A stretch of DNA of 64,000 nucleotides from Lingula anatina. Taxonomy: Eukaryota > Animalia > Brachiopoda. Below the pieces are notes generated by a model, which worked only from the letters and a program-made list of their open reading frames with translations, made no database searches and was not told where the DNA came from. The stretch spans positions 8,060,001 to 8,124,000 of the forward strand of contig CM120640.1 of NCBI GenBank assembly GCA_051362555.1, given 5' to 3'. Below are positions 640-50,814 of this stretch, one piece after another; the first letter of the stretch is position 1, and each line of letters opens with the position of its first letter. The translations under genes and the position numbers were made by a program.

Positions 640-803
640 GTTGAGTCAATGACCAATATACAACGTTGAGTCAACGTCAAATTATGACGGCGTTTTGATG
701 TGACTGGATCAACATTGATTGACGTTGAAATTAGGTAGATCAACGGCGATTCAACGTCCCAACCTGTTTTCAACGTTGATCCAATGTCACTCTGCCTGCT
801 GGG
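640..803. repeat. Repeat insertion rich in CAACGTTGA/ACGTTGA units that interrupts the second linker exon
   Basis: Similarity to the 4320-4195 exon stops at about 803. The sequence then switches to repeated (TC)AACGTTGA motifs and supplies the TGA at 787-789. Confidence 0.5.
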
Positions 804-6438: not shown

Positions 6439-9400
6439 TATTCTCCCTCGCGCAGTCTCTGTCAGACCAGAACAGAGGGGAGTGGTGGTCTGCCGAAGTG
6501 TCCCAGTTTAGACACAACAAGGGGTGGCACGGGGAGCCCGGTTCTCAGCTATCTCAGCAGTACATATTTTATTTTGTTGACCTTCACGATAAAGAGGCGG
6601 GATTTTATAAGATTTCCTAACTGGACTCAAATATCGTTTTTCATGAGATGTCATATCGTGTTTTGTTATTAAATTATAAGCAATATAATCTCAGAGAGGG
6701 CGAATCTGACAGGATATTATGGAAAAGGTGTTATTTCAACACATATGTTTAATCCTTGAAAGGAACTTTGCTTGCTTTTTTTTAAATCTGGGGGCTAGCT
6801 GGTTTGTCAATTATTAATATAAAGTAAGCATCAGTGCACTTCAAAAGATCAAACCTACACATCGTCTCAGTAAATAATGGGAACTGCGACCTTGAGGATA
6901 TATGTAACTAAGGCCCTTTAAATCCATCCAGCACTGAACATAAGCGTTTGATTTTTTGTTTTTTTCAACAAAAGTTATGACCACTCATTATATCAGGGTC
7001 TCGCAAGACATCATCAAAATGAGGCTGTGGTTGTTAGAATAATCTCTACCCAGATGTACAGCTACCGGTAGTGTAGTTTACCTGTGTTGAAAGAAACATT
7101 ATGATCTAAAAGCCATATTTTGTAATACACTAAGCCATCATCATAATGACAGCTACGAAGGAGCGGTTGATACATTCAAGTTACTATACTAGGATTCAAA
7201 TGCACCAAATAATCTCCTAACCGCATTCATGCTCTAATCTCCATGTCGTTATCGCCAAAGCAGGGCTCGTTGGTGCTAGGCGCTACCACCTAGACACTGT
7301 CCTTGCACAATATGATAACGCGTGTGTATAAGGTGATCATACAATAAGACACTATGTCATTTACGATAACAGTAGATGCTACACTGTTTTCTGAAAGATT
7401 CAGGGGGTGGGTAGCCCACCCACTCCCTTTTCCCATTCAAATACCGGAATTGGGTGTGTCCCTTACCGAAAGAGTAGACCTACTGGTCTGAGACCCACAA
7501 AAATACTGTTAAATACCCCAAATGTCCATATATTTCCCTAATGTCTCATAACCTGGATCCCCTAGTGTTCTACCAGTCCCCCCAAACCCCCGCGGATAAC
7601 AGGTGTATGCTTAACATAAAGAGATGACAACTCTTCACTTTGGCGGAAAAAGTGCCATAAAACGGATTTCTGGGAGTAAAGACAATTTACCATACTTTCC
7701 AAGGGTTAATGAATCCGTTCGACATTCAAAGTGAATCGATTAAGTGTGGTTAGTGGTAATAACCATTTTGGAGAATTTTACGGAAGGTTGCCATCTATGA
7801 AGGTCCACGTGGTCCATTGGCAAGCTCAGATTCTAGAATGCTTGCGATAACCGCGGTTTTGGTTGTAAAATGGAATTTATTATACTTCTATGTGTTGTTT
7901 ATAATGTATTTATCGTGGACTTTTGAATCTCATGTGAAGAGTTGTTATCCCTTTAATATACTGGGGGCAGTGGTAATAAAGACGCCACGGTACCTTAGTC
8001 ACTCAAAAGATACATGTAATACAATTAATGATCTACATATCACAACTGCTGTATGTAGAACAGTTTAAATGTGTTTTGATATTTTTTTCTGTATATTTGC
8101 AAGCCGCTCCCGTTTCTTAGCGATTTGTTAATTCTCCATTTTTGTAGATGTGTGGTGTTTGGTTAATTCCTTCTTGTTCTTTGGAGCAGATTAATAGCAC
8201 AAAAAATAGCCCACGCCAAACGATAGATATAGCAGTTGCATGACTTGACGCGCTTGTCATGGCTTCGCCACGTGTCTGAACATCATCAACCACGTGCTAT
8301 ACAGGTATGTTTCATACTCTATATACATTTTCCAGGCATGAGCGCACCATCTATTATTTTGTTTCTTTTACTAATTTTATTACATTCTATAATGACAGTT
8401 TCCAGATAAGGCGAGGGGTTGGTTCCGGGAAGCAGAATATATGTAAATGATTAAGTACTTTGAGACATAAAGGACAATGACCAGGATCAGTTGGGATGAT
8501 ATTAATAATAAAGAGAAGTGTTGGGAAAGTGAAGAATGAAGGGCAGAGGCGTTTTGGAGAGCAAAAAGACAGAAAACGGAACCGAGTGTTCATGTCGTGA
8601 GAAGGCCTAGTGAGAAAAGGGAAATGACAAATGAAATGAAAGGTCAGAGAGGGGTTGGCGGATGAGGTGTGTGAGTTGTCGGTGGCCAGAAAAGAAAGAC
8701 TGGAAATATATAGAATAGGTGGACGAAAGCGATCACCAACGTTCGGAGTTATGGCGTCGCATGGTGATGATGGAGTACTTAGAAAATATGCTCAAACTCT
8801 GCAGCTTTTCAGCTTTCAGATTTTCATCGGATTTTTAAAAGAAATAATAGATAATGAAATGAAAGAACGGAAGAGTCTATATTTTTCATATTTTCATATA
8901 ATCCCCCCTTCGCCTAAAGCTGAAATAGTAAGAATGGTCTCCTGCAATGTGTTAGGTGAGAGCCAATACTAAATGATACGATTTTCACTTCTTTTCCTCG
9001 CACAGTCGTATATTCCATTGCGTGAACGCATTCGTTGTCACAGCTCCATCGGCTCCAATAGGATAACGGTCTAAAGCACTTGTGGATCCATAATTTGAGT
9101 AAAGGGAAAGGGGGCAGAGTCAATAGCAAATAGAACACAGCTGACGAGGGCTCCTTCTAGGACACAGGGAATTAAAATTGCTCAGTTTGGCGTTGTGTCT
9201 TGAGGGGAAAAGGGGGATGCCTGGGAAGGATGGGTCGGGGGACCGGGGGCACGTATTCCGCTGTGACCTCTCCTCTTCATCTACATGTACCTTAACCTTG
9301 TTACAGATCTATATCCCGACTGTGTGTTGTTCTCCCGGTGGTATACCTATTAAAGATGAATTTTATATTTTAGTTTAGTGATTATAAATATTTTGGAAGT

Positions 9401-10164
9401 GGGTTTACTAGTTAAAAGTACATGTTACTTTTAATTTAACTGAGTTTTTTTAATCTTTATGGTAGCCAGTGTTGACTTATATGTACATGTAAATTTGTAA
9501 ACTTTACAGTCATCGGAGGCAATTTCTAAAATATTTCAACTAAGAAACTCTATAACATAGTATTACATAGTATTATTTATTTATTTATTTTTCAATTGCA
9601 ATTCTACATGTAGGCCTATGTAGATAAAGACAGAGAAAATAAAGGACCCTAAGGTCTGCCGTCGGATTAGAACCCCCGGGGGTGAGTAAAAAAAATCACG
9701 TGCTGTCGTATATTAAGAACCACAATTAATTTGCCAGATATTCTAGAGTGAGACAGACAGCACACAAAATGTGCCATGGTAACCTGCATAGAGTCACATT
9801 CTAAGTCGTGGTGCACTGAAGGAAATAGCTGAACACCTACAAAAATCTTTTTTAATGGAAACAGTACTTACGTGGAGTTTGCCTTAATTAACTGTGATTT
9901 TAATGAGAAAAAAAGCAATGAAAAGTCTTCATTGTATTTTTGTTATATTAATATAGTGAAAATTATGCATCTGTCGAGTACATTGACGGGGACTTAATTA
10001 GCTATACCGACAATGTAATATTCAGATTTAAAACTTCACAAAACCAGATAAAATAGTAATGCAAACCAGATCTCAGGAAAAATTCAAAGACTCATATCTA
10101 AATTTTGAATTGGCACCCAGCCTTATGCTAGATCAAATTTTACCCAAAATGGACATTTTCCTGA

Positions 10165-10215
10165 CAAAAAGGGCGGTTCTTTCGAACCCCCCGAACCCCC
10201 CTGGCTACGGGCCTG
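10165..10215. mobile_element. Solo terminus of the same MITE family as 31100-31278
   Basis: Ends in CCCCCCTGGCTACGGGCCTG, the same terminal repeat as the 31.1-kb element. Confidence 0.6.
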
Positions 10216-13654: not shown

Positions 13655-16600
13655 ATGTGTGGTAAATATCTCTACTTTTTGTTAAAACAAAGTAAATTGT
13701 CATCTGGATGCTTCTGTCGACTATTTTCAAGTAGATATCACTGCTTCATTTCGCTTAGCGTCACGTTGGTAATTGTTACATAATGGGTTTGCTTGCCGTA
13801 AATTTCATATAACAATTATTCATTTTAGTCCAGCTTCTTCCATGTTTTTTCTAGTATCCTAATATAAGCACATTCAACCTTTCCATTTCAGCGCCAAGGT
13901 TATATGCTGTCGCGTTAAGTGGTTTGTTTATTGTACTGTTCATGTTGGATACCGGTGCAACAAGCCCGGTTTCAACTAATCCATTCCCTTGGTTTCCTAG
14001 CGAAAATTTACCAAAGAGGGACGCTTTCAGAAATTTGATAGACAGATTAAAACGGGTTCAAGCTCGTTCTCAAAGCTTTGGAGCAAGTAGGCCAAATAAT
14101 GTTGGCGAGTCTGTGCTGGATTCATGGGCAGCTAGGGTGCGAAGAGCTCCAACAGCACGTCAAATGAAGAAGTTAAAGATCAAGAACCTAGCTCAAATGG
14201 CACATGAGGTCCGTTCGTTGTGCAAGGAATCATTCAGTTATTACGTGAGTATGTCCTTACACTTAAAAACCTAAGGAATAAATATAAGTAATGGTACAAA
14301 GATAAGCTATCCATCATGAAAGCTTGATACGTTAATGAATAATTCATTTTACTTACTAGAGAGGTGCTCACCCCCTACAAAATTAAACAACAGGTAAACT
14401 ATCCAGGGTGGGTCTTTATTTATATCAGCACGCCGTTAAGAATTATTAAGTGGAGCTCAACTTTAACGGCTGATAAAACTTTTCAGATTGAAAGAAATGC
14501 CTGATTTCAAAAAAACAATATCAGGTTAATTCCGTAGAGTATGAAATGTGCGTTTGTGACATTGTATTAATTTGAAGTATCCAAACCGAATGTAGATGAC
14601 GCTAATAGGTATTCTATGTTTGCTGGAAATGCATTACCTTCGTGCAATTTGGACTTTAAGAGAGACGTTAGGTGAGAGTCAATTCGTTGGAGATATATGC
14701 TAATGCTTCCGATGATCACCCAGTTAATCTCTGTGGTCTTTTCTTCTTTTTTCGTGAGTAAGCACATGCCAATAGGCACGAGTGATGATAAAGTTGATAT
14801 GATATAATAGTTTTGGTTATTGTATGAAATATTACGAACAATTTACAAACCCGTAAAGCAAAGTAAAACTCGATTACATAGTTTATATAAAAAATCAATT
14901 TGATCACATGATTAATCTTCATTATATAGTTCCTGTGACAGGATTCTTTAAGTGGCCAGTTTGAAAACGTGCTACTTTAGTGTAAATGACCATTTATTTA
15001 ATAAATCTGAGTAATGTATAAAATATTTGTATCACTATTAGTAGGTCATCAGACAAAAGGACAGACAGATGCATTATCCCCTAAGTTTAATAGAAGCATT
15101 TTGGTTGATGTGTTACGCTGTTTCCAAGACCTTTGGGACGTTGCTTAAAACGCTGTCCCAAAACCAGCTTGGCAAATAAAATAAATCGAAGCGAAGAGAA
15201 TTCAGACACCAGTGTTAATTTATCACCCCTAGTATTTAAACTTTCTGGTACAGATTTTGGTAGACGTATGTACCTATAATTTACAAACTTGAATAAATTA
15301 CTCTCGTTCAAAAGGGCACGGAGCACGTGCCTTCCATGAGACTGTACGGCCAGTTTCAACGATTTCAGCTATTCCTAATTACCTTACCATAAACCCTAAC
15401 ACAGAGACAGTATATTTCGAAAGTGACTGTTATAGACAGATACAAATTGGATATTTTTCAGTGTAGTAAGGTGAGGGAAAGCATCCCAGGGGTTTTCAGA
15501 AGCTGTTCAGAGTTTTCATCAACTTTAGTTGGAAAGTATGGACTACCCAGACTAGGTTCTGTCAGCGTTGAACCAATGCAAGAGGAGGACGCATTTACGG
15601 TAAGCTTATCTCTTTTTACTGTTTATGATTGTAAGAGAGGATGTACAGACTGAATATCATGTATGCCATAAATATGTTTTCTGAATGGTCTCACAAGAAA
15701 GCAAGGACAAATATATCTCAAATATGCCATCGTCGCTCTATTAATTGACGGCAGTAATGTACTTTTATCATGCAGTAATGTACTTTTATAAACGTTGCCT
15801 TATCTGAAACAGTAATAATAACATGTTAGATTAACAAATTGCAAAAGATAAAATACTATGATGCACTACAGGTCAAAATATTACATTTTGTCATTGATTA
15901 ATGATTGTGAAAATGTTCTATACTTCATCATGTGCCGAAATATCCGCTTAAAGAGGAAGAAATACAAGACATATACAATTGAACATATCGATGTATTCCT
16001 GAACAACTGATTTCTTTAAAAATGCAAAATTCGTTTACTTTAAAGCGTGTACCCTGTGTTCTAGCTACAATGGTATAGGTTAAAGATTCCCAGTTATTAT
16101 TCTAATGACTGCCATGTATTTTTTTTTTTATTTTTAGGTGGCTCTCAACAGCGTGCTCAAGGATGTTTCCCGCTACAGATTTGTGATGGCAAACGTCAGC
16201 AAGATGGAGCAGGAAGCACTGTGCCCTGGAAACCGTGGGTTCTGTCCGCAGCTTGAATGTTCCGGAGCATACACCTTCTATTGCCACATGGAGGACTTAA
16301 TGGATGCCACTTCCAATCTGATAACGAACTTAAAAGATGATGTAAGTCGTTCTCTTTTTGAATTTTGCGTGAAAATTATTACGTTTTAACGATATACTCT
16401 TCTGTTTGTATTCGAGCATTTATTGGTAATATATTTGTGATGGTTAGCTAGCTATGAAGTGTGCACTAAGCTCTGTAGGAGATGAAATGAGTCCTTGTAC
16501 ATGCAAAAGGTGCCCCACTTTCACCATCTCTATTATACGTGCTTGTCAGCAATTATGATACAGAATTCAGAGAATAAGTTTATTCAATGCGTATTTTTTA

Positions 16601-16789
16601 TTGTTTCAGATGGCAACATTGCAGATTCCAGTGGAACAGCAGCGAAATACAGTGACATTAGACAGTTACTCTTTATCTCCTGTTACCACAACGCCGAGAC
16701 AAGAATATACACTAGCATCTTTGCACCAATACTCGAAGCTCTCTTCGGAAATGCAAGAAATGTTTGTATACCTGTACAATCTTGTTTAA
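13655..16789 (+). CDS. Gene B: secreted putative long-chain four-helix cytokine-like protein, 293 aa, with probable furin-cleaved prodomain
   Basis: Exons 13655-13661 (ATGTGTG|gt), 13892-14244, 15462-15599, 16138-16341 and 16610-16789. All boundaries are GT-AG, phases are 1,0,0,0 and the frame is open (882 nt). N-terminus MCAPRLYAVALSGLFIVLFMLDTGATS is a signal peptide; an RVRR site follows. Exon 4 VALNSVLKDVSRYRFVMANVSKME..C..CP..C..FYC is homologous to the D genes. Gene model is strong; the cytokine call is inferred. Confidence 0.8.
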
Positions 16790-23144: not shown

Positions 23145-23575
23145 ATTGCGCAACGTAATCAAATTGCAGCATGAAGTCATGGGTCCCATATTATAGGAAT
23201 CTTGATAGGTAATCATATGATATCTTATTATATCCTGACCACATGTATAGGTAAAGTTAAATATACGTTCATTTCAGTATCAATGCTCGAACCATTTATC
23301 AATGGAAATACCAGGATATGAACGTATATGGAATGAGCTACTTCTACTATGAATAGTTTATTTTGGAATGTACAGTAAAGTTACCTGTTATCCATTGTCA
23401 GTGACGAAGAGGTATGTATACTGCAAGAACGAAACGGGATATTCCCAATAAAATTGTTTTAGAAAAATGAGGAAATATACCTCAGCGGTCATGGGTCCGA
23501 ATATTAGGTAATTAATGTTAATTAAACATATCTAAAAATACAGTCAATCCCATATATATATATATATATATATAT
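23145..23575 (+). promoter_or_regulatory. Promoter of gene C with C/EBP-like and NF-kB-like sites and a (TA)n/TATA element
   Basis: ATTGCGCAAC at 23145-23154; GGGATATTCC (fits GGGRNNYYCC) at 23436-23445; (TA)n at about 23552-23575, roughly 60-85 nt before the ATG. Confidence 0.5.
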
Positions 23576-23636: not shown

Positions 23637-26083
23637 ATGGGATTCAAAGGTAGGTCAAATCAGTGCAGTGCTACATGTAAGGTGGATATATCAATTATTC
23701 CATAACGTTTTGTACCATGACTAATTCAGTGCATTGTTTCACCTCAATGTTTTTCTTTATTCCAGATCTTTTAACAATTATATGCGTACTGCTACACCAG
23801 GCACCGACAATCAAACCAGCAAGTATAACAACGGGATCCAGCGTTCAGAAAGATATAATCGTAGATATACGATCAGCGGCAACAGGTTTGATTGATAGTA
23901 TTGACACTATGTTGCTCGATAACAAATTCAAAATGGTAAGGACGTATCTAAGTTTCCCCCTGTCATTATCTTGATTTATTAATATATTCTAACCTTAATC
24001 AACAGAATCTGTCTGAGCCGACACAAATGTGCGATTCTCAGAAATCACGTACAGAATCACGGAAAAAATAAATGGGTTAAAACGAGTCACCGTCACTACC
24101 TGGAAACACAGTGTGCCTATAACCCGCAAGCAACAGCGGTGAAAAGCACCTGTTGGACCGCTAGCGAAATGTTTCACGTAATTCATTTTTATGGCGTAGA
24201 CAAACGACTCACTTATCGTAATTGTGTTTTACGTCAATTTCATGGTTATTGTGTATTTAAGTTATTTACTATGTACTTGTGTTTGATTAACTACTTTTTT
24301 CCAGTTGATAGAGAATTACAACCATTTCAATGTGGGATTTCCAACTTCATCGTGCAGTAACTACCAATCAGGAGACGTTATGTTGCAGGTATTTGCAATA
24401 ACTACGTGACTTTTCCATGTATCAGGATAAAAAATTCTATCATCATTTCCAGAAATGGGTTTAATGCAGATATTTTTATGACTACGCAATCTTAAGTTGC
24501 GCTATTTTATAACCTTTTACTTGTGCATGATGTCTTTCAGTATTTTTTTTAAAGAAATGTTCAATAAATTGCTCAAGAACTATTAAACTACCTACCATAG
24601 CCATTTGTTAACTCAAACCAAAATTAATGTTTTTCGGTCTGTTTAGCACGTAGTAAACGACATAGGGTGCTACCAGTCAATATTGATGACACTCAACAAT
24701 GCCTCCTGTGCATCGAGTTCAGAAAACCCCGTGTGTTTGATCTGCCGGGTAGGGATTTGCAGTACAGTCGTGAACGACTTGTTGAATTACAAAAACCAAA
24801 TACAAGTGAGTTGGTTTATTCTCTCGTTGTGCCTTTGGTAATGCTTGATTTAAAAACCATTTAAAAGATTAATTGTTGGACTTGTGCATTCACATTTCGT
24901 GATAATAATGATAATGATAATGGTAAAAGAAATCCTCATACATGAAGATTATTTATAAGATTATTTATTACATCAGGCCAGTGTGATCCTGTGTTTCTCC
25001 ACTTTATTGTTTCTGGTCTCTCACAGTCCCTTGCTCCCATTCTTCAATCTATCTTTCATTGACATTAATCTCCTTGATCACCTTGACAGTCTCTGTTAAC
25101 GGTCAGTTTATAAATAACCCGCTCCTGTTCTTCCTCCCGTCCTTATCCCTAGCTTTCCGTCCCTAGTGACTACACGGCTGAACAACTGACCTAATAGCTA
25201 TAGGCTTATCACCCAATTTTATTTAGAGTTTAGTGTTAGTGTTTTATGAATAATCCTGTTCACAGTGTGTATCTCATTTCTTTTCCTCTCATTTAATTAT
25301 TATGTGTCTTGTCATCCAATCTTTTCTTTCATTATTATACTATTTTAGTCAGTTCAATCAATTTTTGGATCTCATTTCATCCGTTTCTATAAAAAATCGG
25401 TACCTTTCTATCAGTTTTTGTTATTTTAATTAAAAAACATTAAAATGTGTTACACAACTTTTTCTGTTTTTTTTTTTTTTTCTTAAGATATTCCTCTTTT
25501 TCCTTGCAATCTTACTTTTTCTATTCACATATTGGTTTGTCCCATGTGGTACTACACACATTCGGTTAGGAAAATTGTAAACCGCCAACCTGCTTCTACT
25601 TTCCCCTTTTCCATCTTAAGTTAGCACACACTGGTCAAGGAAGTGACAGATTTTTTTACTCAGTTCTGTGTGCATTCTTTTATTCTAAGCGATCCATCAC
25701 CTTGATTGTCTTCTAATTTAGGAACTCTTGAGTTAAGCATATTGTTTATCAAAGTATTCAGTTGATAAACTGATGTGCTGATTCATTTATCCTGGCAAAG
25801 GCAGGTGTTAATAAAATATTCTTCTGTTTTATTTTGTATTTTGGTAAATTAAGAAAAAATAGTTGTGCATTTCAACTCAGCAGCAGAACTGTTGTTCTTT
25901 CAGAGTCTTAGTAGAAACACCATATCGCCACAACGTCTGCGTTCCAGTTGTACCAGCCTTGCCGGGGTCTTTAGCAAAACTGTTGCCACGAGGGTCGTGG
26001 CCTTATCTCAAGCTGTCACTGCACTGCAACATGTCACAAGGAGTCACCTGAAGTGTTTCACTTTGCCTCCAATTGTCGGATGA
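23637..26083 (+). CDS. Gene C: secreted putative IL-6/IL-11-type four-helix cytokine-like protein, 201 aa
   Basis: Exons 23637-23649 (ATGGGATTCAAAG|gt), 23766-23935, 24305-24388, 24647-24805 and 25904-26083, i.e. 13/170/84/159/180 nt, phases 1,0,0,0, open frame. Signal MGFKDLLTIICVLLHQAPTIKPA. Helical segments: IIVDIRSAATGLIDSIDTMLLDNKF, LQHVVNDIGCYQSILMTL, TVVNDLLNYKNQIQSL and ATRVVALSQAVTALQHVTRSHL. AATAAA at 26366. Confidence 0.8.
24960..25190 (-). mobile_element. Possible degraded LINE 3' fragment in gene C intron 4
   Basis: Purine-rich minus strand ending in an AATAAATAA-type tail; no intact ORF. Confidence 0.25.
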
Positions 26084-28149
26084 TTATGCCAACGTGGATT
26101 TTTAATCTAGGTGTCTTATCTGACATTTAAGTGTAAAAACGCAAATAGTTTCACGCTTCCATGATATCATGTTCATGAATACTCTTTAGTGGAAAGCTGA
26201 CTACCTGCAAATGGGACATTATATTGCCAAACGACCTCATATTTAATATTATACTTTTTATCCTTTATTTTTGTACTATTTTGCATTTATAACATAATTG
26301 GATATTTTCTGATATAGAATATCTTTACGATTATTTTATTTGTCATACAAATATATTTTGCAAGCAATAAAATGTGGATGAATATACACATTATCATCGA
26401 TGTTTACTCGTATCCCGTAAATTAAACTTAAATACTTTTGAAGCCAATTTCACGTTATCATGATAATTATTAAATGGCAATTTGAACCTCGGGCATTCAA
26501 TCTACGAAGTAGTGACGGATATGATGATGATGATAATAATGATGATGATATAAAAAGACAACAATTTTTTAAAAAATGTGATTAAGCTCTGGCCATTTAT
26601 AAACTTTTTTATTCTAATATTGAATCGGAATATAAAATGTGACATGCTTCCTGTAAAAACATGACAAACTTCTGACGAATTTCTGGACATCTTCCTAAAG
26701 TTGCTGGACATTTCTCCACCAGATGCCATTTCATTTACCATCAGTTGTATATCATGCCTTGTATAAGTACGAGTATGTATGGGTGCACAGTATAAACAAT
26801 TTTTCTGTATGCTATTTGACAGAATTTTGCTGAAGGCCAGCAAATATATCCACCATGCATGTACAAAGAAATGGTACGTCTTCGGCATGTTTCGAAGGGA
26901 AAATAGTCACTTTCACTATGAACCTAAATCGCTGTTGTCCTAACAACGCATACAGATAAGAGACCATTATGTAGTATTAAATCAGAGACCACCGCCAAAG
27001 TGATCAAATGAAATTGTCTTAGATGGGGGATATCTGGAACGGTGGCGACATCTGTATAATCAGGTAAACAAACATTATGTGATTCCAAATTGATTTTCAT
27101 ATCTGTTGGTCTGACGGCAATACCTACACCCAGGACAAGACTGTAGGTGCGTTTAAACATTAAGCTGCAACACTTCCTCTCGGGAAGACCCATCTAAGAA
27201 ATCTGTCTGATTTAGGTGCATGCGCCATGAAAGTTGAATTGGCAAATATCATCATGAACAACTGCAATAGCCAGAAACCAAAGCTGCATCTATTCAGGCA
27301 GTTAAAATGTCTACGGTAGTGAACACATTAAATGATTAATTAAATTAAGAAATAGTTATGACAATTGTCCTCTATCACATGGGACAATTTGACAACTAAA
27401 TACAACATAGAAAATGGCAGCGTAAACAAAGCTAAAATGCAGTCAGGGCTCTTTAGAGCACAGCTAGCACAATCCAATACGGTGCAATCGGCGCAGTGTA
27501 AACTAATCACATAGGCTAACAATTAAGCAGTGTAAAAAAAAGGCACCTTAGCACCAGTATGATTGAAATATGAAGGATGCAGTCTTTATTTATGTAAAGA
27601 ACCATCAAATATGTACTTGTGATTCTAACTGGATTTTAGAATTACTCTTACGTTGTTGCTTTCAAATAACGTGTCTGCTGCAAATCCGTGAATACGAACA
27701 ACTGCATCACGTATTTCAGGAGTTCCTTCCAAATTTTTAGGGGCGTTGGACATTGCTCATTGACTTCTTTATGTTTTAATTTTATAATATAACCACGAGG
27801 CTACCGACATTGTCACATATACTGAATGTTTGGTTGAATTTGCCTATCCAGATAGCTTTTCAAGTTATTCTATCATAGACAAGGTAGCAACTGGCATTTG
27901 GCCTATATTCCATGGAGACATCATAAATCACGTCTTATAAGTAAGTCACTGCAATTTACTAGTCTAATCATTTCACTCCAACTGATTGCTGACTTATTTT
28001 ATGTCGCATTTATCAGGGCAATAGGCAATTTGCTGACATTCTTTACGCAAACAGGTATTAACTATCTACAGCAGTTATTGTCTGTATGTGCTGCATGTCC
28101 ACTCGAAGACCTGTAGCCTATTGTAAGGGTCCTCCCTTACTTGTGAGAG

Positions 28150-29678: not shown

Positions 29679-31896
29679 TCAGATTTGAGCCATATCTGAG
29701 TTATTGACAGAAAAAACATGGAAAAATGCCAACATGCAGTCTTTAAATTCTTCCGTAATTTCTTGAAGATTATAGAGGGCCAGTTGAGTATAGACTGAAG
29801 TGACAAAGTCTGATAGCTTTTGTGGTCTGACAAACTTCACCTGAAGTGCGAGGGAGTGGTTACCGGCAATTTCTGTGTTAAAATTGGACAGCTGCAAAAT
29901 AAGAGAATATGTTATAATGTATACTAGTTTAGACATTTTGTTTTTACATATACATTAGTAAGTTAATTTGTTAGTGAATTATGCCATTTTTAAGTGATTT
30001 CGAACGACTGCTTTTCTTAAAGATCTAATTTTCACGATTTCTATGTATCATACAGTATCTACGTGTATTATTGCTCAATTTAAAACACCAAGTGACAGTA
30101 GTAGTATACAGCGCTTTTATGACACTGATGTATACATATATAAACTTTACGTTATTATGCTCGGAATATTATTGGTTTGTTTTCATCATTTTTTATCAAA
30201 GCTATTCGTTCTAACAGCCTCCTTTAAATAAATATATCCCTCTTTATCATTCTACTCACCGTTCTTCGAAGAAAAAACATAGTATCGTTCACACTTTTCA
30301 TGACGTCACCAAGACTGGTGCAGTAAAAGCTGTTGTCGTCATTGATTGTGCCACACTGGTAGTTGTCGGTGGGACAGCCAGATTTGGAGTTACACAGTCG
30401 ACGATACTCCAGCATAGACACATTGCCGAGAACTAACTTATAAGCGGTAAGATCATGGTGAAAACTGTTCAAAGCCACCTAAAACAAAAAAGCCATTTTA
30501 TAGTTATTGTAAGTTCAAAACTTAAAGTATAAAAAGTTTATAGATCAACTATCTTCAGCCTCTTGAGCGTAATCAATTTTCCAAGTAAAGATCTGAGAAT
30601 TACTTCAAGTACTAAAACGTTACATAATAACAGCTACCATTGCATATTTAGACATTTTCAAATAAAATTTAATTTAGGCATTTATTTGAATAAGGTACAT
30701 ATTGCAAAATATAAAAGTAAAAACAGGAAGTCCTAAAAACTTACCGCAAGAGCTTCCACTTCTTCCAAGTATTTTGTCTTTGTTTGAATGAAGAGTTTGG
30801 CACACGTGTTTCTAGGAAAGTACCAGCCTCCTAATTTGCCAGGATCCGCAGTTTTGGGGTCGATATTTGTATAAGGTGCAACTCGTGGCTGGTTCACCTG
30901 CATAAAATGATACTGTTGTCTCAATTTGTCGAATTCAAATCAAAATATTTAAGCACAGATCTTTTTATATTCTAATGTGGATAATTTGTTTTCTGAAAAT
31001 GACATTACATCAAGACTGAAATATATGAGAAATATGCGGTGAATTTTACTGTCTTGAAAAAATAGAAGGGAGACGAGTGATAGAATCAGTAAGTACATGC
31101 AGGCCCGTAGCCAGGGGGGTGCGGGGGGATTCGAAAGAACCACCCTTTTTGCTGGGAAAAGGTCCACTTTGGGTAAAAATTGATCTATGTACCTGAGAAT
31201 TTTATGGTAAAAGGTCCACTTTTTCAGCAAACGAACCCCCCCCCCCCCCCCCCCATGAATTTGCTGGCTACGGGCCTGACATGTAAGTGTCAGTTTAAGT
31301 TAACCAAGACTTACAGTCAGACAATATATTGTATATACATTAACCATTACTTTTCTACCCTGTAGTTAATATTTCACAGTATTAAGAATCCATGTTCACT
31401 CACGTAAGTTTGGTAACTGCTCTGTGTCACAGTGTACAAATTTATCTGGGACCTGATCAGCCGGGTGAGATTCCCTTTAAGAAACTCCATTAAAGTCGGG
31501 TTCATGTAGTTGACGGGTCTTTGGCAGGAAAAATCAAGGCTAGTTACCAATGGACCATTGGTCCGGGCAGGATAATGCCAGTTTAGGTTTGACATATGGT
31601 CAGCAGTCGGTAGGGGGTGGATTGTTGTGCTTGATTCAACAATCGCCAAAGCAAATAAAAAGGCAGCAGTTCCTAGGAAGACAATCAGACAAGATATCAA
31701 AGTTTTGATCAATTAAAACTTTTGTCTGTTGGTCTTAATGCCACAGACTCACTTTAAATTTAAGATGCAAAAAATGCAATATTAGCGAATCCAGTTATGG
31801 ATCCCGGCATTTATCAAAAACCAATTCATCATTCAATTTCTTCAATAAGATCGGAAGAAAAGTTCACTCACCTGTTAGGCTGAGTTTGAAATCCAT
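29679..31896 (-). CDS. Gene D1: secreted helical cytokine-like protein, 292 aa (tandem copy 1)
   Basis: Exons 31896-31872, 31672-31404, 30897-30745, 30478-30260 and 29891-29679; phases 1,0,0,0; open frame. Signal MDFKLSLTGTAAFLFALAIVES. Helices: LMEFLKGNLTRLIRSQINLYTVTQSSYQTY, VALNSFHHDLTAYKLVLGNVSMLE, LGDVMKSVNDTMFFLRRTL and VYTQLALYNLQEITEEFKDCMLAFF. Confidence 0.85.
31100..31278. mobile_element. 179-bp MITE with 5-bp target-site duplication in D1 intron 2
   Basis: Terminal inverted repeats CAGGCCCGTAGCCAG / CTGGCTACGGGCCTG, flanked by ACATG on both sides. The empty site TACATGTAAG is present in D2 (about 36376) and D3. Confidence 0.9.
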
Positions 31897-35020: not shown

Positions 35021-37707
35021 TTAGAAAAGAAAAATGTCTGAGTTGTTGACCGAAAAAATATGGAAAAATGCCAACATGCAGTCTTTAAATTCTTCCGTAA
35101 TTTCTTGAAGGTTATACAGGGCCAGTTGAGTATAGACTGAAGTGACAAAGTCTGATAGCCTCTGTGGTCTGACAAACTTCACCTGAAGTGCGAGGGAGTG
35201 GTTACCGGCGATTTCTGTGTTAAAGTTGGACAGCTGCAAAATAAGAGAAAAGATTTATAACGTGTATCAGTTAAGGGTTTTTGTTTTACACTCTTTTACA
35301 TTAGTTGGTGAATAAAACCTTAGTTGCGTGATACTTGACGACTCTTTTTCATACAATTCTCATCATTTTCATGTATCATTTCAATATTTAACTATTCAAA
35401 TTAATGCGTAGCAGAACACAGTGCACTTGTTTCTTTCATACTGACATATAAAACTACGTTATCTATTTGCTTACATTTTATCCTTATTTCAATTTATATT
35501 AAAACTTAAAATATTTTTTCTTTTTGTCATTCTACTCACCGTTCTTCGAAGAAAATACGTAGTATCGTTCACACTTTTCATGACGTCACCAAGACTGGTG
35601 CAGTAAAAGCTGTTGTCGTCATTGATTGTGCCACACTGGTAGTTGTCGGTGGGACAGCCAGATTTGGAGTTACACAGTCGACGATACTCCAGCATAGACA
35701 CATTCCCGAGAATTAACTTGTAAGCGGTAAGATCATGGTGAAAACTGTTCAAAGCCACCTAAAACAAAAAAGCCATTTTATAGATATTGTAAGTTCAAAA
35801 ATTAAAGCATAAAATGTATAAAGACTTAGGCCTACTATCTTCTGAGCGTTATCAATTTTCCAAGTAAAGATCTGAGAGTAACATCAGGTACTAAAACGTT
35901 ACATAATAACAGCTACCATTGCATATTTAGACATTTTCAAATAAAATTTAATTTAGATATATATTTGAATAAGGTAAAATTTGCAAAATATTAAAGTAAA
36001 AACAGGTAGTCCTAAAAACTTACTGCAAGAGCTTCTACTTCTCCTTCCAAGTATTTTGTCTTTGTTTGAATGTAGAGCTTGGCACACGTGTTTCTAGGAA
36101 AGTACCAGCCTCCTACTTTGCCAGGATCCGCAGTTTTGGGGTCGATATTTGTATAAGGTGCAACTCGTGGCTGGTTCACCTGCATAAAATGATACTGTTG
36201 TCTCGATTTGTCGAATTCAAATCAAAATATCTAGGCACAGATCTGTCCATATTCTAATGTGGATAATTTGCTTTCTGAGAACGACATTACATCAAGACTG
36301 ATATACATGAGACATATTCGGTGAATTTTACTGTTTTGTAAAAATACAAGGGAGACGAGTGATAGAATCAGTAAGTACATGTAAGTGTCAGTTTAAGTTA
36401 ACCAAGACTTACAGTCAGACAATATATTGTTTATGCATAAAGCATTACTTTTCTACCCAGTACTTTACTTCGCAGTATTAAGAACCCATGTTCACTCACA
36501 TAAGTTTGGTAACTGCTCTGTGTCACAGTGTACAAATTTATCTGGGACCTGATCAGCCGGGTGAGATTCCCTTTAAGAAACTCCATTAACGTCGGGTTCA
36601 TGTAGTTGACGGGTCTTTGGCAGGAAAAATCAAGGCTAGTTACCAATGGACCATTGGTCCGGGCAGGAAAATGCCAGTTTAGGTTTGACATATGGTCAGC
36701 AGTCGGTAGGGGGTGGATTGTTGTGCTTGATTCAACAATCGCCAAAGCAAATAAAAAGGCAGCAGTTCCTAGGAAGACAATCAGAAAAGATATCAAAGTT
36801 TTGAGATTAAAATTTGTCAATTAAAACTTTTGTCTGTTGGTCTTAATGCCACACCCTGAGCTTCAGAGATAACTTGACACTAACCTCTTCACAATAGCCT
36901 ATCTTCATCGTGTCAAGTTACCTCTGACCACATTCGATTGCCCCCGCCGCCCGCCAATCAAATTTCAGTTACCTCTGACGAAAATAGTTTGACCTAGTTT
37001 ATATAAGCCAATCGAATCCATGTTTAAAAAATTTTTCACCAAAGTTTGGTGAAAACGCTGATTGGTTGAAAGTCCAGAATTATGTCCAATGAGGAAATTG
37101 TATTTCGTTGCGTCCGCATAACCGTCAATCGGCACTCCTCGGCTGATTCCGCAAGCTCCATACTAACAACAAAGTTATTGTCGAGTGCGGAGACATCCGA
37201 GTAGTGCCGAGTGCATAACCGCACACAAAGAAAGCATGGCGTCTCCTACGAGTGACTACGTAAAAGAATGTGTTAAGTTATCTCTTGATTCTTTGCGAAA
37301 TATGAGTATATCGGAATTGAAACCAGAGCAGTTTGAGGCCCTGCATCATTATCTACTGAGGGATGATGTATTTTGCGTGCTGCCCACAGGTTACGGCAAG
37401 TCCCTGATATTCAGCCTTATCTTTGATTGGTCCGGATTTGAACAAAGCGCGCTTTGACTCGTTCTCGTTCATTGGCTAGATCGTTCAATGAGTCACTGAA
37501 GGCGGGCTTTAAATTTGATTGGCGGGCGGTGCGGGCAATCGAATGTGGTCAGAGGTAACTTGACACGATGAAGATAGGCTATAGTGAAGAGGTTAGTGTC
37601 AAGTTATCTCTGAAGCTCAGGGTGTCAAAAACCAATTCATCATTCAATTTCTTCAATTAGATAGGAAGAAAAGTTCACTCACCTGTTAGGCTGAGTTTGA
37701 AATCCAT
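35021..37707 (-). CDS. Gene D2: secreted helical cytokine-like protein, 293 aa (tandem copy 2)
   Basis: Exons 37707-37683, 36768-36500, 36179-36024, 35758-35540 and 35233-35021; frame and splice sites intact. Confidence 0.85.
36851..37625. mobile_element. Non-autonomous DNA transposon with about 115-bp terminal inverted repeats carrying a RecQ-type helicase N-terminal fragment (AcademH-like)
   Basis: ACACCCTGAGCTTCAGAGATAACTTGACAC.. (36851-36965) is the reverse complement of 37511-37625. An internal + ORF (37236-37457) reads ELKPEQFEAL..DVFCVLPTGYGKSLIF, the RecQ Q-motif plus Walker A. Absent from intron 1 of D1, D3 and D4. Confidence 0.85.
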
Positions 37708-40447: not shown

Positions 40448-42412
40448 TTAGAAAAGAAAAATGTCTGAGTTGTTGACCGAAAAAATATGGAAAAATGCCA
40501 ACATGCAGTCTTTAAATTCTTCCGTAATTTCTTGAAGGTTATACAGGGCCAGTTGAGTATAGACTGAAGTGACAAAGTCTGATAGCTTTTGTGGTCTGAC
40601 AAACTTCACCTGAAGTGCGAGGGAGTGGTTACCGGCGATTTCTGTGTTAAAGTTGGACAGCTGCAAAATTAGAGAAAAAAATTTATAAAGTATATCAGTT
40701 AAGGGTTTTTGTTCTTACACTTTTTTACATTAGTTGGTGAATAAAACCTTAGTTACGTGATACTTGACGACTCTTTTTCGTACAATTCTCATCATTTTCA
40801 TGTATCATTTCAATATAAAACTATTCAAATTAATGCGTAGCAGCACACAGTGCACTTGTTTCTTCATACTGACTTATAAAACTACGTTATCTATTTGCTT
40901 ACATTTTATCCTTATTTCAATTTATATTAAAACTTAAAATATTTTTTCTCTTTTTCATTATACTCACCGTTCTTCGAAGAAAAAACATGGAATCGTTCAC
41001 ACTTTTCATGACGTCACCAAGACTGGTGCAGTAAAAGCTGTTGTCGTCATTGATTGTGCCACACTGGTAGTTGTCGGTGGGACAGCCAGATTTGGAGTTA
41101 CACAGTCGACGATACTCCAGCATAGACACATTGCCAAGAACTAACTTGTAAGCGGTAAGATCATGGTGAAAACTGTTCAAAGCCACCTAAAACAAAAAAG
41201 CCATTTTATAGATATTGTAAGTTCAAAACTTAAAGCATAAAATGTATAAAGACTTAGGCCTACTATCTTCTGAGCGTTATCAATTTTCCAAGTAAAGATC
41301 TGAGAGTTACATCAGGTACTAAAACGTTACATGATAACAGCTACCATTGCCTATTTAGACATTTTCAAATAAAATTTAATTTAGATATATATTTGAATAA
41401 GGTAAAATTTGCAAAATAGTAAAGTAAAAACAGGTAGTCCTAAAAACTTACTGCAAGAGCTTCTACTTCTCCTTCCAAGTATTTTGTCTTTGTTTGAATG
41501 TAGAGCTTGGCACACGTGTTTCTAGGAAAGTACCAGCCTCCTAATTTGCCAGGATCCGCAGTTTTGGGGTCGATATTTGTATAAGGTGCAACTCGTGGCT
41601 GGTTCACCTGCATAAAATGATACTGTTGTCTCGATTTGTCGAATTCAAATCAAAATATTTAAGCACAGATCTGTTCATATTCTAATGTGGATAATTTGCT
41701 TTCTGAGAATGACTAAAATACATGAGAAATATTCAGTGAATTTTACTGTCTTGTAAAAATAGAAGGGAGACGAGTGATAAAATCAGTACATGTAAGTGTC
41801 AGTTTAAGTTAATCAAGACTTACAGTCAGACAATATATTGTATATGCATAAAACATTACTTTTCTACCCAGTACTTTACTTCGCAGTATTAAGAACCCAT
41901 GTTCACTCACATAAGTTTGGTAACTGCTCTGTGTCACAGTGTACAAATTTATCTGGGACCTGATCAGCCGGGTGAGATTCCCTTTAAGAAACTCCATTAA
42001 CGTCGGGTTCATGTAGTTGACGGGTCTTTGGCAGGAAGAATCAAGGCCAGTTACCAATGGAATATTGGTCCGGGCAGGATAATGCCAGTTTAGGTTTGTC
42101 ATATGGTCAGCAGTCGGTAGGGGGTGGATTGTTGTGCTTGATTCAACAATCGCCAAGGCAAATAAAACGGCAGCAGTTCCTTGGAAGACAATCAGACAAG
42201 ATATCAAAGTTTGGAGATTAAAATTGCTCAATTAAAACTTTTGTCTGTTGGTCTTAATGCCACAGACTCACTTAAATTTAAGATGCAAAGGAATCTTATG
42301 ACCTGATTGATTTTAGCGAATCCAGTTATGGATCCCTGCATTTATCAAAAACCAATTCATCATTCAATTTCTTCAATATTCACTCACCTGTTAGGCTGAG
42401 TTTGAAATCCAT
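40448..42412 (-). CDS. Gene D3: secreted helical cytokine-like protein, 293 aa (tandem copy 3)
   Basis: Exons 42412-42388, 42179-41911 (AAG acceptor), 41607-41452, 41186-40968 and 40660-40448; frame intact. Confidence 0.85.
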
Positions 42413-42487: not shown

Positions 42488-42622
42488 CTTTTATACAATT
42501 GTTACCCATCTTAAGACGCTATTTTGATCACAACAAAAATATTAGAATATTTTGGGTATCCACTTACCATCTTATTTAGATACCTCCGAAACAATAAGAT
42601 GGGAATTTCCAACGCTGACGTA
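42488..42622 (-). promoter_or_regulatory. D3 promoter: TATA box, consensus NF-kB site and CRE-like site
   Basis: TATAAAAG at 42495-42488; GGGAATTTCC at 42601-42610; TGACGTA at 42616-42622. Confidence 0.7.
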
Positions 42623-45047: not shown

Positions 45048-46955
45048 TTAAAATAGAGAAATGTCTGAGTTGTTGACCGAAAAAATATGGAAAAATGCCA
45101 ACATGCAGTCTTTAAATTCTTCCGTAATTTCTTGAAGGTTATACAGGGCCAGTTGAGTAGGCCCTATAGACTGAAGTGACAAAGCCTGATAGCTTTTGTG
45201 GTCTGACAAACTTCACCTGAAGTGCGAGGGAGTGGTTACCGGCGATTTCTGTGTTAAAGTTGGACAGCTGCAAAATAAGAGAAAAGATTTATAACGTAGG
45301 CCTATATCAGTTAAGGATTTTTGTTTTTACACTTATTTTACATTAGTTGGTGAATAAAACCATAGTTAAGTGATACTTGATGACTCTTTTACGTACAATT
45401 CTCATAATTTCCATGTTTCATTTCAATATTTAACAAATCGTTATAACACGTAGCAGCACACAGTGCATGTGCTTCTTTGATAGTGACATAAAAAACTGCT
45501 GTCTAAATGCTCACATTTTATCCTTGTTCCAATTTATATTACAACTCTTCGTCGTTACTTCTTCCATAAAATATTTTTTCTCTTTATCATTCTACTCACC
45601 GTTCTTCGAAGAAAAAACATGGAATCGTTCACACTTTTCATGACGTCACCAAGACTGGTGCAGTAAAAGCTGTTGTCGTCATTGATTGTGCCACACTGGT
45701 AGTTGTCGGTGGGACAGCCAGATTTGGAGTTACACAGTCGACGATACTCCAGCATAGACACATTGCCGAGAACTAACTTGTAAGCGGTAAGATCATGGTG
45801 AAAACTGTTCAAAGCCACCTAAAATAAAATGTCACTTTATAGAAACAAAGTTTAAATATTTTGAAGCATATACACAATTCCTACCATTGCATGTTATAAA
45901 TCCTTAAAAGTTTCAATGATTATATTGAAATAATGTACATTACGAAATTATACAATAGAAACGGCTAATACATGGTCCTTAGAATTTACCGCAAGAGCTT
46001 TCACTTCTCCTTCCAAGTATTTTGTCTGTGTTTGAATGAAGAGCTTGGCACACGTGTTTCTAGGAAAGTACCAGCCTCCTAATTTGCCAGGATCCGCAGT
46101 TTTGGGGTCGATATTTGTATAAGGTGCAACTCGTGGCTGGTTCACCTGCATAAAATGATACTGTTGTCACAATTTGTCGAAGCGAAATCAAAATATCTAC
46201 GCACGGATCTGACCAGATTCTAATTTGAATCTTTAGCCTTCTGAGGATTACATTTAGGTCTACATCATGTCTGAAATACATTAGAAACAGCCAGTAATCC
46301 TTACTGTCATGTAAAATTAGGAGGGAGATGAAAGTGATAGAATCAGTAAGTATATGTAGGTGTCAATTTAAGCCACCATCAGACGACATATTGTATATAA
46401 CATTTAGCATTACTATTCTACCCTGTAGTTGATAATTCACAGAATTAAGAATCCATGTTTACTCACGTAAGTTTGGTAACTGCTCTGTGTCACAGTGTAC
46501 AAATTTATCTGGGACCTGATCAGTCGGGTGAGATTCCCTTTCAAAAATGCCATCAATGTCGGGTCCATGTAGTCAACGTTTCTTTGGCAGGAAGAATCGA
46601 CGTTAGTTACCAATGGACTATTGGTCCGTGCAGGATAATGCCAGTTTAGGTTTGGGATATTGTCAGCAGTCGGTAGGGGTCGGAATGTAGTGCCTGATCC
46701 AACACCCGCCAAGGCAAATATGATGGCAAAATTTCCTAAGAAAAAAGTCAGACATGTTAACAAAGTTTTGCGATTAAATTTGTCTAATTAAAACTATTCT
46801 CAGTTAGTCCAAATGCCACAAACTGAAATAAAGTTGCAAAATAAATCTCAAATCTCTAATCGAGCCCTGCATTTATCAAAACCAAATGTACCATTCAATT
46901 TCTTCGATAAAACCGGAAGAAAAGTTCACTCACCTGTTATGCTGAGTTTGAAAAA

Positions 46956-46958
<3 letters not shown>
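45048..46958 (-). pseudogene. Gene D4: tandem copy 4, frameshifted in the last exon (C-terminal helix lost)
   Basis: Exons 46958-46934, 46735-46467, 46145-45990, 45818-45600, then from 45267. A 7-nt insertion GGCCCTA (45160-45166) gives ..TSVYRAYSTGPV* with the stop at 45141-45139. Confidence 0.8.
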
Positions 46959-48119: not shown

Positions 48120-49507
48120 ATACTTCTCCTTCCAAGTATTTTGTCTGTGTTTGAATGAAGAGCTAAGCACACTTGTCTCTAGGAAAATACCAGCCAGGAT
48201 TCACATTTTTGGGGTTGATATTCGTACAAGGTGCAGCTCGCGGCTGATTCACCTCCATAAAATAATGCTATTTTTATCACTTTTTATTACTTTGGCGAAG
48301 CGAAATCAAAATATTTCCGCACGGATCTGACCAGATTCTAATTTTGATCTTTCTTCTTCTGATGATTACATTTACCACAAGTCTGAAATACATTAGAAAT
48401 GCCCAGGAGGCTTATAAAAATAGGAGGGAGACGAAAGGGAGAGAATCAGTAAATTAGAGTAAATCTAAGATAAAGAAGAGTTACCATCAGACATTATATT
48501 GTATATTACATAAAGTAAAGAATTATTGTTCTACCCAGTAGTTTATTTCATAGTATTAAGAATCCATGTTCCCTCACTATCTACTGTAGTTGCCAGTCTC
48601 AGGCATGATCTTTTAAGATTAAAATTCTCAGACAAGATATCAAAAGTTAAGGGTTAAATTAAAACATTTTACTCTAGAGTAGATATATTCTTAAGTCTGC
48701 CTAAGTTCTACAGGAACATTTGAGGAAATTTTGATTTTATTATAGGTGTTCATGACCTGGACACAATGGACAGGGGTTCCTAATTATTTGTTGCTTTATG
48801 TGTGTAAATACGCTTCTTAATTTGCATCACAGATGGTCTTGTCTTTTCTAATTGTAGTCCTGCTGAAAAGTAATATAGCGAAGGTTGTATGTATAGGCCT
48901 AAATGTTAAAAATGACCTATTGCACACAATGCATTTGATTTTCTCTTTAAAATAGTCATAACCTCTCCAAAACAAGTTGCGAAAAAATCTCATAGCCTAA
49001 TCAATCCTATCGAACTCAATTACATCTATCAAAAAACAAATTATTTTTCAATAAAATTAGAATCGCATCCACTCTCCTGTTATGCTGAGGTGAAAAATAT
49101 TTTGTTGTTCTTCGCAGTGAACAGTCATATCATATAAAGGACTTCTATCATAACTTACTCATTTTAACGATTTGATTTCCTTCTTACCCTTTTATACTTT
49201 TGTTGCACATCCTAGATGCTATTTTGATCTCAACCAAAATATAAGAATATTTTACATCCAATTTATACATCTTATCGTAACAATAAAATGGGGATTTTTA
49301 GCCTTGACGTACATGTATCCTGTAACGTTGATATAACAGTAGTTAATAAGTAACAGATTCAAGGTGGTAACGTGTTATATACTGCATACGCACAGGTATT
49401 AATATCACAGATATGAGTATTCAAACTTAGCTGAACAGACACTGGTAAGTCAATTCCTTTGTGCTTTTCTCCTTGTAACTTTTCTAGGATTGCAGCAAAA
49501 TAGTTTC

Positions 49508-49545
<38 letters not shown>

Positions 49546-49560
49546 TGTTTCATATATTTT
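48120..49560 (-). pseudogene. D5: degraded relic of the D gene (exon 3, exon 1 and promoter remnants)
   Basis: 48120-48265 aligns with exon 3 with deletions. Exon 2 is nearly all deleted (about 48550-48660). The exon 1 remnant (about 49070-49100) has ATG changed to ATA and the donor GT changed to GA. TATA, kB and CRE remnants lie at 49190-49315. No exons 4-5. Confidence 0.8.
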
Positions 49561-50814
49561 CATTTTGATTTCTGATGGTAAATTGAATACGTCAGGATGT
49601 AGACGTAGGTTTCTAAAGGCAAAATTGTCAAAGCTTAATTAGCTTGTATTACTTTTCAGTTGGGCATTTTTACAAATCGCAACCTTCGCCATATTACTTT
49701 TCAGCAGGACATTTTTACAAAACGCAACGATCGCAAGTGCAGTCTGAGGATTTATTGTCTGATTAATTAACCGTTAAGTTTCTTTTCACGACAAGCAGAT
49801 GGCAGGAGGAAACAACATAACCCAGGCAGATCCAGCACTATGCCAAGACAGGGGCACAAAGATAAAGGAAAAAACTGACCGAATCGAGGCAAATATTCAA
49901 GAATAAAGATGTTATTTTACGATAATATGTGTGAAACTGGGATTTTAAAAAATTGCTTGGTTTGTTCTCTGAGTATGACTAGCAAAAGGAGGCCAAACCA
50001 CACATTTTTCCATCATTGTGCCCTGCAAATTACAGTGACATTGTCCACATGCAACTACAAGGCAAATTTTCTATACCAGTGCCCCTCATCCCAAATCCTG
50101 TATCCACTACTGTAGTAGTACCTACCATCAAATTTATATAGGTCCTCGTCCGTTGAATAACATATAGGGAGGGAGAAGGGGAAGAAGCAGTTACGCCCAA
50201 AGCTAAGGTGGGCTGCTGCCCCCCCCCCCCTTGATCCATTACAACATAACCCTACTGCACTGAAAAGTGTGTTTGTAAATATGGTAGTAGAGGCAGATCC
50301 TTGTTCGTAATTTGGTGAGTATGACATTTGAAACATTTACCATCTTTTCCTTTCCACAGAATGAATCATGAAGTAAAGGTTATATTTAGGCATATTCCCC
50401 GTTTTTTAACAATCTGTTTTACGATTGTAACGAAAATGTCTTGAAGTCCAATAAAACTCATAAGCAGGAAATTGATCTGAAAAGAGACCGCAAAGAAAAC
50501 ACTGATACATGTAGCTTAGAAGGTTCATGTCCTTTTGAAAATGAGACACAGAGAAATAACGTTAATTGAACTCTATTACTTGCAAATAGCACCGATCAGA
50601 CAAAAACAGAATAGCAAAATAAGTTGGTGGTGACAGTGAACCAATGTGCTGCGGGCCTGAGTATCCTGGGTTTTGTAAACTTGGTGTTATTGGCCATATT
50701 CCAATGCTTTAGAGAAGTCAAGATGTCTAGACATTTTTACTCAACTATCGCAATTGTTAGTCCGATTTTATCCTAATGCCTGTGAATGGTGCACTTGAGG
50801 ATCTCATGCACAAA

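Follow-up and report, generated by a model that had tools for sequence, protein, structure and literature searches.

Does a gene whose coding exons are nearly as long as those of vertebrate IL-11 descend from the same gene? This question is raised by gene C, at positions 23,637 to 26,083 of a 64,000-nucleotide (nt) window of DNA from the brachiopod Lingula anatina (assembly GCA_051362555.1, contig CM120640.1, positions 8,060,001 to 8,124,000 of the forward strand). Our analysis indicates that the product of gene C is probably a secreted class I cytokine of the long-chain four-helix, IL-6/gp130 type and that the gene probably belongs, after fast divergence, to a local cluster of such genes, and that its match in size to IL-11 is real, being suggestive of a shared template and not of orthology.

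The five-exon model of gene C is exact: the spliced frame runs through 201 codons to a single terminal stop, all splice sites are canonical (GT..AG in 4 of 4 introns, which measure 116, 369, 258 and 1098 nt and have phases 1/0/0/0), and the splice scores are comparable to those of its neighbors, genes B and D. Introns 2–4 (within 23936–25903), the three of phase 0, all have lengths that are multiples of three, for which the chance is 1 in 27, and contain stops. Gene C shares with class I cytokines the five exons with phases 1/0/0/0, a putative signal peptide and a length of 201 amino acids (aa), against a mature size of about 170–200 aa in that class. IL6, CSF3, EPO, GH1, PRL, and IL11 all have phases 1/0/0/0. 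Five exons with conserved phases are described for IL-6 genes (PMC13081863), and halibut IL-6 likewise has five exons (PMC3271213). By simple hydropathy the N-terminus is hydrophobic (Kyte-Doolittle mean 3.4 over residues 6–14), the protein is cysteine-rich with 9 Cys, and prolines occur only in predicted loops and ends. The initial annotation had described the product as lacking a prodomain, which is borne out, because gene C has no RxxR site and its exon 2 is short, with 170 nt against 353 in B and 269 in D.

The fold of this family is best seen in gene B, whose exon 4 retrieved an uncharacterised RefSeq protein of Lingula anatina (LOC106150477) and whose model differs from the 293-aa isoform XP_013378784.1 at one residue of 293. 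The predicted structure of B is an up-up-down-down bundle of four long helices, for which IL-11 is the top structural match (CLCF1 lies within 1 Z of it), followed by matches that include CNTF, IL-27, and IL-6. The introns of B fall on this model at positions 27, 73, and 141, where helix A ends, helix B starts, and helix C ends, which are the same places as in vertebrate genes. Homologues of B were found in another phylum, as two proteins of the nemertean Tubulanus polymorphus (P0004 and P0005), which hint at a second cluster in that species. In B and in both nemertean proteins an N-terminal extension closes at RxxR (residue 84 in B), and D–G also carry such an extension; gene D scores E 3.8e-13 against the profile of B and the nemertean proteins. 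We consider it very likely that B and D–F have the long-chain class I four-helix fold. Gene C sits between B and D, shares their exon-size classes as well as the phases common to all 5 intact genes of the cluster, and has, like each of them, a single copy of the motif [GD][ILV]xx[YF]xxx[LVM] early in exon 4, a putative helix-B motif that resembles the IL-6 signature quoted in PMC3271213.

Several observations weigh against placing gene C in this family. Two family profiles give gene C -1.5 and -0.7 bits, and 852 of 1895 scored shuffles did at least as well against the profile built from B, D, and the nemertean proteins. The summed global-alignment z is 1.1 and the hhalign probability 0.08, and of 8 exons compared like for like only two matches, both weak, fall under p 0.05 before correction, namely exon 3 with exon 3 of B (p 0.046) and of D (p 0.038). 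The 9-Cys pattern is out of register with the conserved cysteines of B, and amphipathicity is not significant in any of the four predicted helical stretches of C (p 0.10–0.70), B being significant in 1 of 4. Gene C lacks tryptophan, the residue described as forming the hot spot at site III in IL-6 (PMC7378365), and the helix-B motif was defined after the sequences had been seen. The structural argument from B is itself limited in that its model was built on 3 sequences and all Foldseek rows lie above E 0.001, the best being 0.009.

Such results could also be read as showing that the secreted product of gene C has another fold, or is unrelated to B and D, and that the phases and neighborhood are shared by chance. 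There is no sequence homology to B, D or anything in the collections searched; when exon 4 was searched against longer proteins, none of 36 candidates reached E<=10, which is weak evidence from that exon only. In addition to the divergent cysteines, exon 4 folded alone gives a helix-loop-helix of low confidence (predicted local distance difference test, pLDDT, 55). However, both neighbors of gene C are predicted to have the cytokine fold and share its five-exon 1/0/0/0 layout, its size classes, and the motif in the same exon, and because B and D themselves are clearly and significantly alike in exon 4 only, loss of signal is to be expected in this family; the IL-6-type family is indeed described as losing sequence signal (PMC13081863). 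We therefore regard an unrelated fold as unlikely. The same data do not support two proposals of the initial annotation, namely that gene C is the most ancestral-looking member and the best anchor for homology. It is the least connected member, with no database match and no significant profile score, and is the worst anchor, B having both cross-phylum homologues and a confident fold.

A second alternative is that gene C is a silent, cytokine-derived gene (a young pseudogene) or a chance chain of open stretches. It is absent from the annotation of the protein collection, and among the 8 of 9 same-species RNA runs that were covered, with 6–30% of each sampled, four had no mapped reads, while in the other four gene C showed trace depth and no spliced joint, which is not counted as expression evidence. 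However, B, despite its RefSeq model, was also nearly without reads in those runs. On the other side, the four introns are canonical, with splice sites that score about as well as those of B and D, the spliced frame stays open for 606 nt, and the start, stop, AATAAA, and kB-like site are in place. A scan of the window for chains of five open exons that have phases 1/0/0/0 and begin hydrophobically flagged 6 loci (B, C, D, E, and two judged false, but neither F nor G), against no locus in any of 12 Markov-2 controls of 64 kilobases (kb), although the scan is partly circular because its size limits were chosen with B, C, and D already known. The two false chains were rejected, that at 6161 since it falls within an intron of a MAM-domain gene and that at 31151 since a false exon 2 had been joined to the exons of D. 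A silent gene or chance chain is thus very unlikely. Of the regulatory motifs, GGGRNWYYCC matches number 4 in the window against 3.0 expected by chance (30 of 100 shuffles), i.e., chance level, and a kB-like site is present in only 2 of 6 promoters. Likewise, the three ATTTA motifs of the 3′ region compare with 1.4 expected per 400 nt and are not significant.

The remaining alternative would make gene C a true orthologue of IL-11, or that descendant of the ancestral IL-6-family gene which has changed least, and would explain its exon sizes by conservation. Human IL11 exons measure about 7/173/87/162/171 nt, and the summed difference to gene C is 24 nt (6/3/3/3/9), compared with 72–93 nt for IL6, CSF3, EPO, GH1, and PRL. 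Cumulative intron positions are nearly equal (61/89/142 in C, 60/89/143 in IL11). Under a uniform-size model the chance of such a match is 0.3–1.4% for IL11 alone, but it climbs to 2–7% over six templates, a figure that precedes counting the several invertebrate genes that could have been tried. Equal cumulative lengths do not amount to identical structural positions, since the distance from intron 3 to the helix-B motif differs in C: within exon 4 the motif starts at codon 5 for C, codon 9 for B and D, and about codon 10–11 for vertebrate genes (about 11 for IL-11). None of the 4 exon pieces of C has a Pfam cytokine match, and none was found for IL11 or IL6 at E<=1. Of the vertebrate sizes given in the initial annotation, the 7-nt first exon of IL-11 is in print, since in both fish and mammalian genes the first intron is described as lying 7 base pairs from the start codon (PMC3271213); the other IL11 and IL6 sizes were not found in print. 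A first coding exon of 7 nt is present in gene B (13655–13661) and not in C. Halibut IL-11b is likewise a 606-nt open reading frame of 201 aa, but IL-11 is described as leucine- and proline-rich (PMC3271213), in contrast to the 9 Cys of C, and IL-6-family paralogues are stated to have arisen inside vertebrates (PMC13203501). The top rank of IL-11 for the neighboring B would favor this alternative too, but B bears a prodomain and has greatly different exon sizes, so likeness to IL-11 is not special to C. The lead toward cytokines of the IL-6 and IL-11 type stands for the cluster, through the structural matches and intron positions of B. For gene C, orthology to IL-11 or least-changed descent is highly improbable, and the closeness in size most likely stems from a template common to the whole family, exons varying in length with their helices. 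An interferon or class II identity was rejected, since it needs phases 0/0/0/0 (the phase used for an interferon screen in 10.64898/2026.05.30.728932) and five to six helices, with which the phases and structural ranks disagree.

Returning to a diverged IL-6/gp130-type cytokine, the cluster may be compared with several known systems. Against the vertebrate IL-6/gp130 family (IL-11, IL-6, CLCF1, CNTF, IL-27p28, LIF, and OSM) and G-CSF, identity is 8–13% and the BC loop holds additional cysteines; an N-terminal extension distinguishes B, D–G, and the nemertean proteins, and C is without a site-III Trp. Searches gave no cytokine match in PDB by sequence and no cytokine family in Pfam for 12 exon pieces and 4 whole proteins, no IL11 or IL6 Pfam match for B and the nemertean proteins at E<=10, and, with a profile of B and the two nemertean proteins, only those 3 among 3186 candidates. 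The growth hormone, prolactin, and EPO group is present among the structural matches of B, with Z 10.6–15.4, below the best gp130-family ligands. These genes have five exons with phases 1/0/0/0, and the first coding exon of EPO has 13 nt as in C, but their size difference to C is 72–78 nt. In 2021 Xin et al. reportedly claimed an oyster “interleukin-12 p35 homolog”, which would be a lophotrochozoan class I helical cytokine; the matches to B included no oyster protein. The IL-6-like genes of lamprey and hagfish (PMC13081863, a 2026 preprint) were similarly recognized by fold and exon phases, not by BLAST, occur as tandem paralogues, and are described as driving STAT5 phosphorylation, but they are vertebrate genes with synteny and IL-6 cysteines, whereas Lingula is a protostome. 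Drosophila Unpaired 1–3, the Domeless ligands, are protostome JAK/STAT ligands with clustered paralogues and modeled four-helix bundles, but their homologues are described as annotated solely in Drosophila species (PMC5385356), and searches with B gave no sequence link.

Coordinates of gene C and of the rest of the cluster are collected in Table 1. Genes D, E, and F form a tandem array (exons 25/269/153–156/219/213; 280–281 of 293 residues identical), and the D–G array (29400–49600) consists of units of about 5 kb with 75–93% DNA identity. In exons 2, 4, and 5, codon differences between E and F are 11 non-synonymous and 4 synonymous, and those between D and E or F 10–11 and 13, in both cases too few to call selection. 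Gene G is probably a pseudogene or an assembly error. The exon 2–3 joint of the D type was crossed by 5 RNA reads in two runs, for which paralogues E–G may be the source. A repeat at 31100–31255 (intron 2 of D; related copy at 10129–10215), absent from E and F, collects hundreds of reads from other transcripts, which explains the depth peak there as something other than D expression. Intron 1 of E holds an insertion of about 775 nt (36851–37625) with 115-nt terminal inverted repeats 97% alike and a fragment like the start of a DEAD/DEAH helicase (E 0.001, which falls short of the cut-off); it is probably a non-autonomous DNA transposon that captured this sequence. In the promoter of B, a pair of STAT-like sites (-484 and -415) is a possible lead to feedback. 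Head-to-head with B and about 7 kb apart, the sole flank of the cluster within the window is a secreted-looking gene on the minus strand (780–6440) whose MAM domains (Pfam MAM E 3.8e-7 and 0.004) arose by internal duplication and which has a Thr/Ser-rich linker. Past the array, exon-like Tyr/Trp-rich open stretches on the minus strand (50055–50500) are a candidate gene with no Pfam match.

Table 1. Features of gene C and the surrounding cluster (window positions).
Feature	Position	Strand	Description
Gene C, exon 1	23637..23649	+	13 nt, phase 1
Gene C, exon 2	23766..23935	+	170 nt; signal-peptide-like stretch and predicted helix A (by analogy with B)
Gene C, exon 3	24305..24388	+	84 nt; predicted AB loop
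Gene C, exon 4	24647..24805	+	159 nt; predicted helix B, Cys-rich loop, helix C
Gene C, exon 5	25904..26083	+	180 nt including stop; predicted CD loop and putative helix D
NF-kB-like site	23436..23445	+	201 nt upstream of gene C ATG; a lead only
(AT)n run	23552..23575	+	upstream of gene C; possible TATA-like element, function putative
Gene C, 3′ region	26125..26371	+	three ATTTA motifs; AATAAA at 26366–26371
Gene B	13655..16789	+	exons 7/353/138/204/180; 293 aa; signal peptide, prodomain, four-helix cytokine domain
Gene D	29679..31896	-	exons 25/269/153/219/213; 292 aa
Gene E	35021..37707	-	tandem copy of D; 280/293 residues identical
Gene F	40448..42412	-	tandem copy of D; 280/293 identical; NF-kB-like site at 42601–42610
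Gene G	45061..46958	-	copy of D; 7-nt insertion in exon 5 shifts frame
Relic of further D-type copy	48130..49566	-	exon 3-like piece 69% identical; upstream region

From the gene structure, the cluster, and the predicted fold of B, we infer how gene C may work. Given the NF-kB-like site and the AU-rich 3′ end, it would be transcribed only on demand, and its product would be secreted directly without propeptide processing, while B-type paralogues would be freed from their propeptide by furin-type cleavage at RxxR. The product of C would fold up-up-down-down and dimerise a gp130/Domeless-like receptor to signal through JAK/STAT. A receptor of the gp130/Dome type is held to be older than the protostome–deuterostome split (PMC1963337), and a Lingula STAT is mentioned in PMC13203501. 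A wider scenario, which we hold only tentatively, is that the bilaterian ancestor had a five-exon 1/0/0/0 gp130-type cytokine gene, and that brachiopods and nemerteans keep tandem clusters with two sub-types, the furin-activated B-type and the prodomain-less, NF-kB-inducible C with ancestral exon sizes also kept in IL-11, which would be the missing ligands of lophotrochozoan Domeless/gp130-like receptors.

In a 2026 survey of 18 metazoan groups, IL-6-family ligands are placed in vertebrates only, while receptor, JAK, and STAT are reported from molluscs and other invertebrates and Upd is noted in insects (PMC13203501); even in jawless fish (lamprey and hagfish), IL-6 was found only recently, by means of structure (PMC13081863). 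We found no published description of these Lingula or Tubulanus genes in the open-access literature. The weight of the finding rests on the cluster and not on the coincidence in exon size. The cluster likely supplies JAK/STAT-activating cytokines that this animal lineage was believed to lack, and it provides named proteins for tests on lophotrochozoan receptors. Taken together, the fold of B, the exon layout of B–G including C, and the nemertean homologues would push this class of ligand and its gene structure back to the common ancestor of protostomes and deuterostomes.
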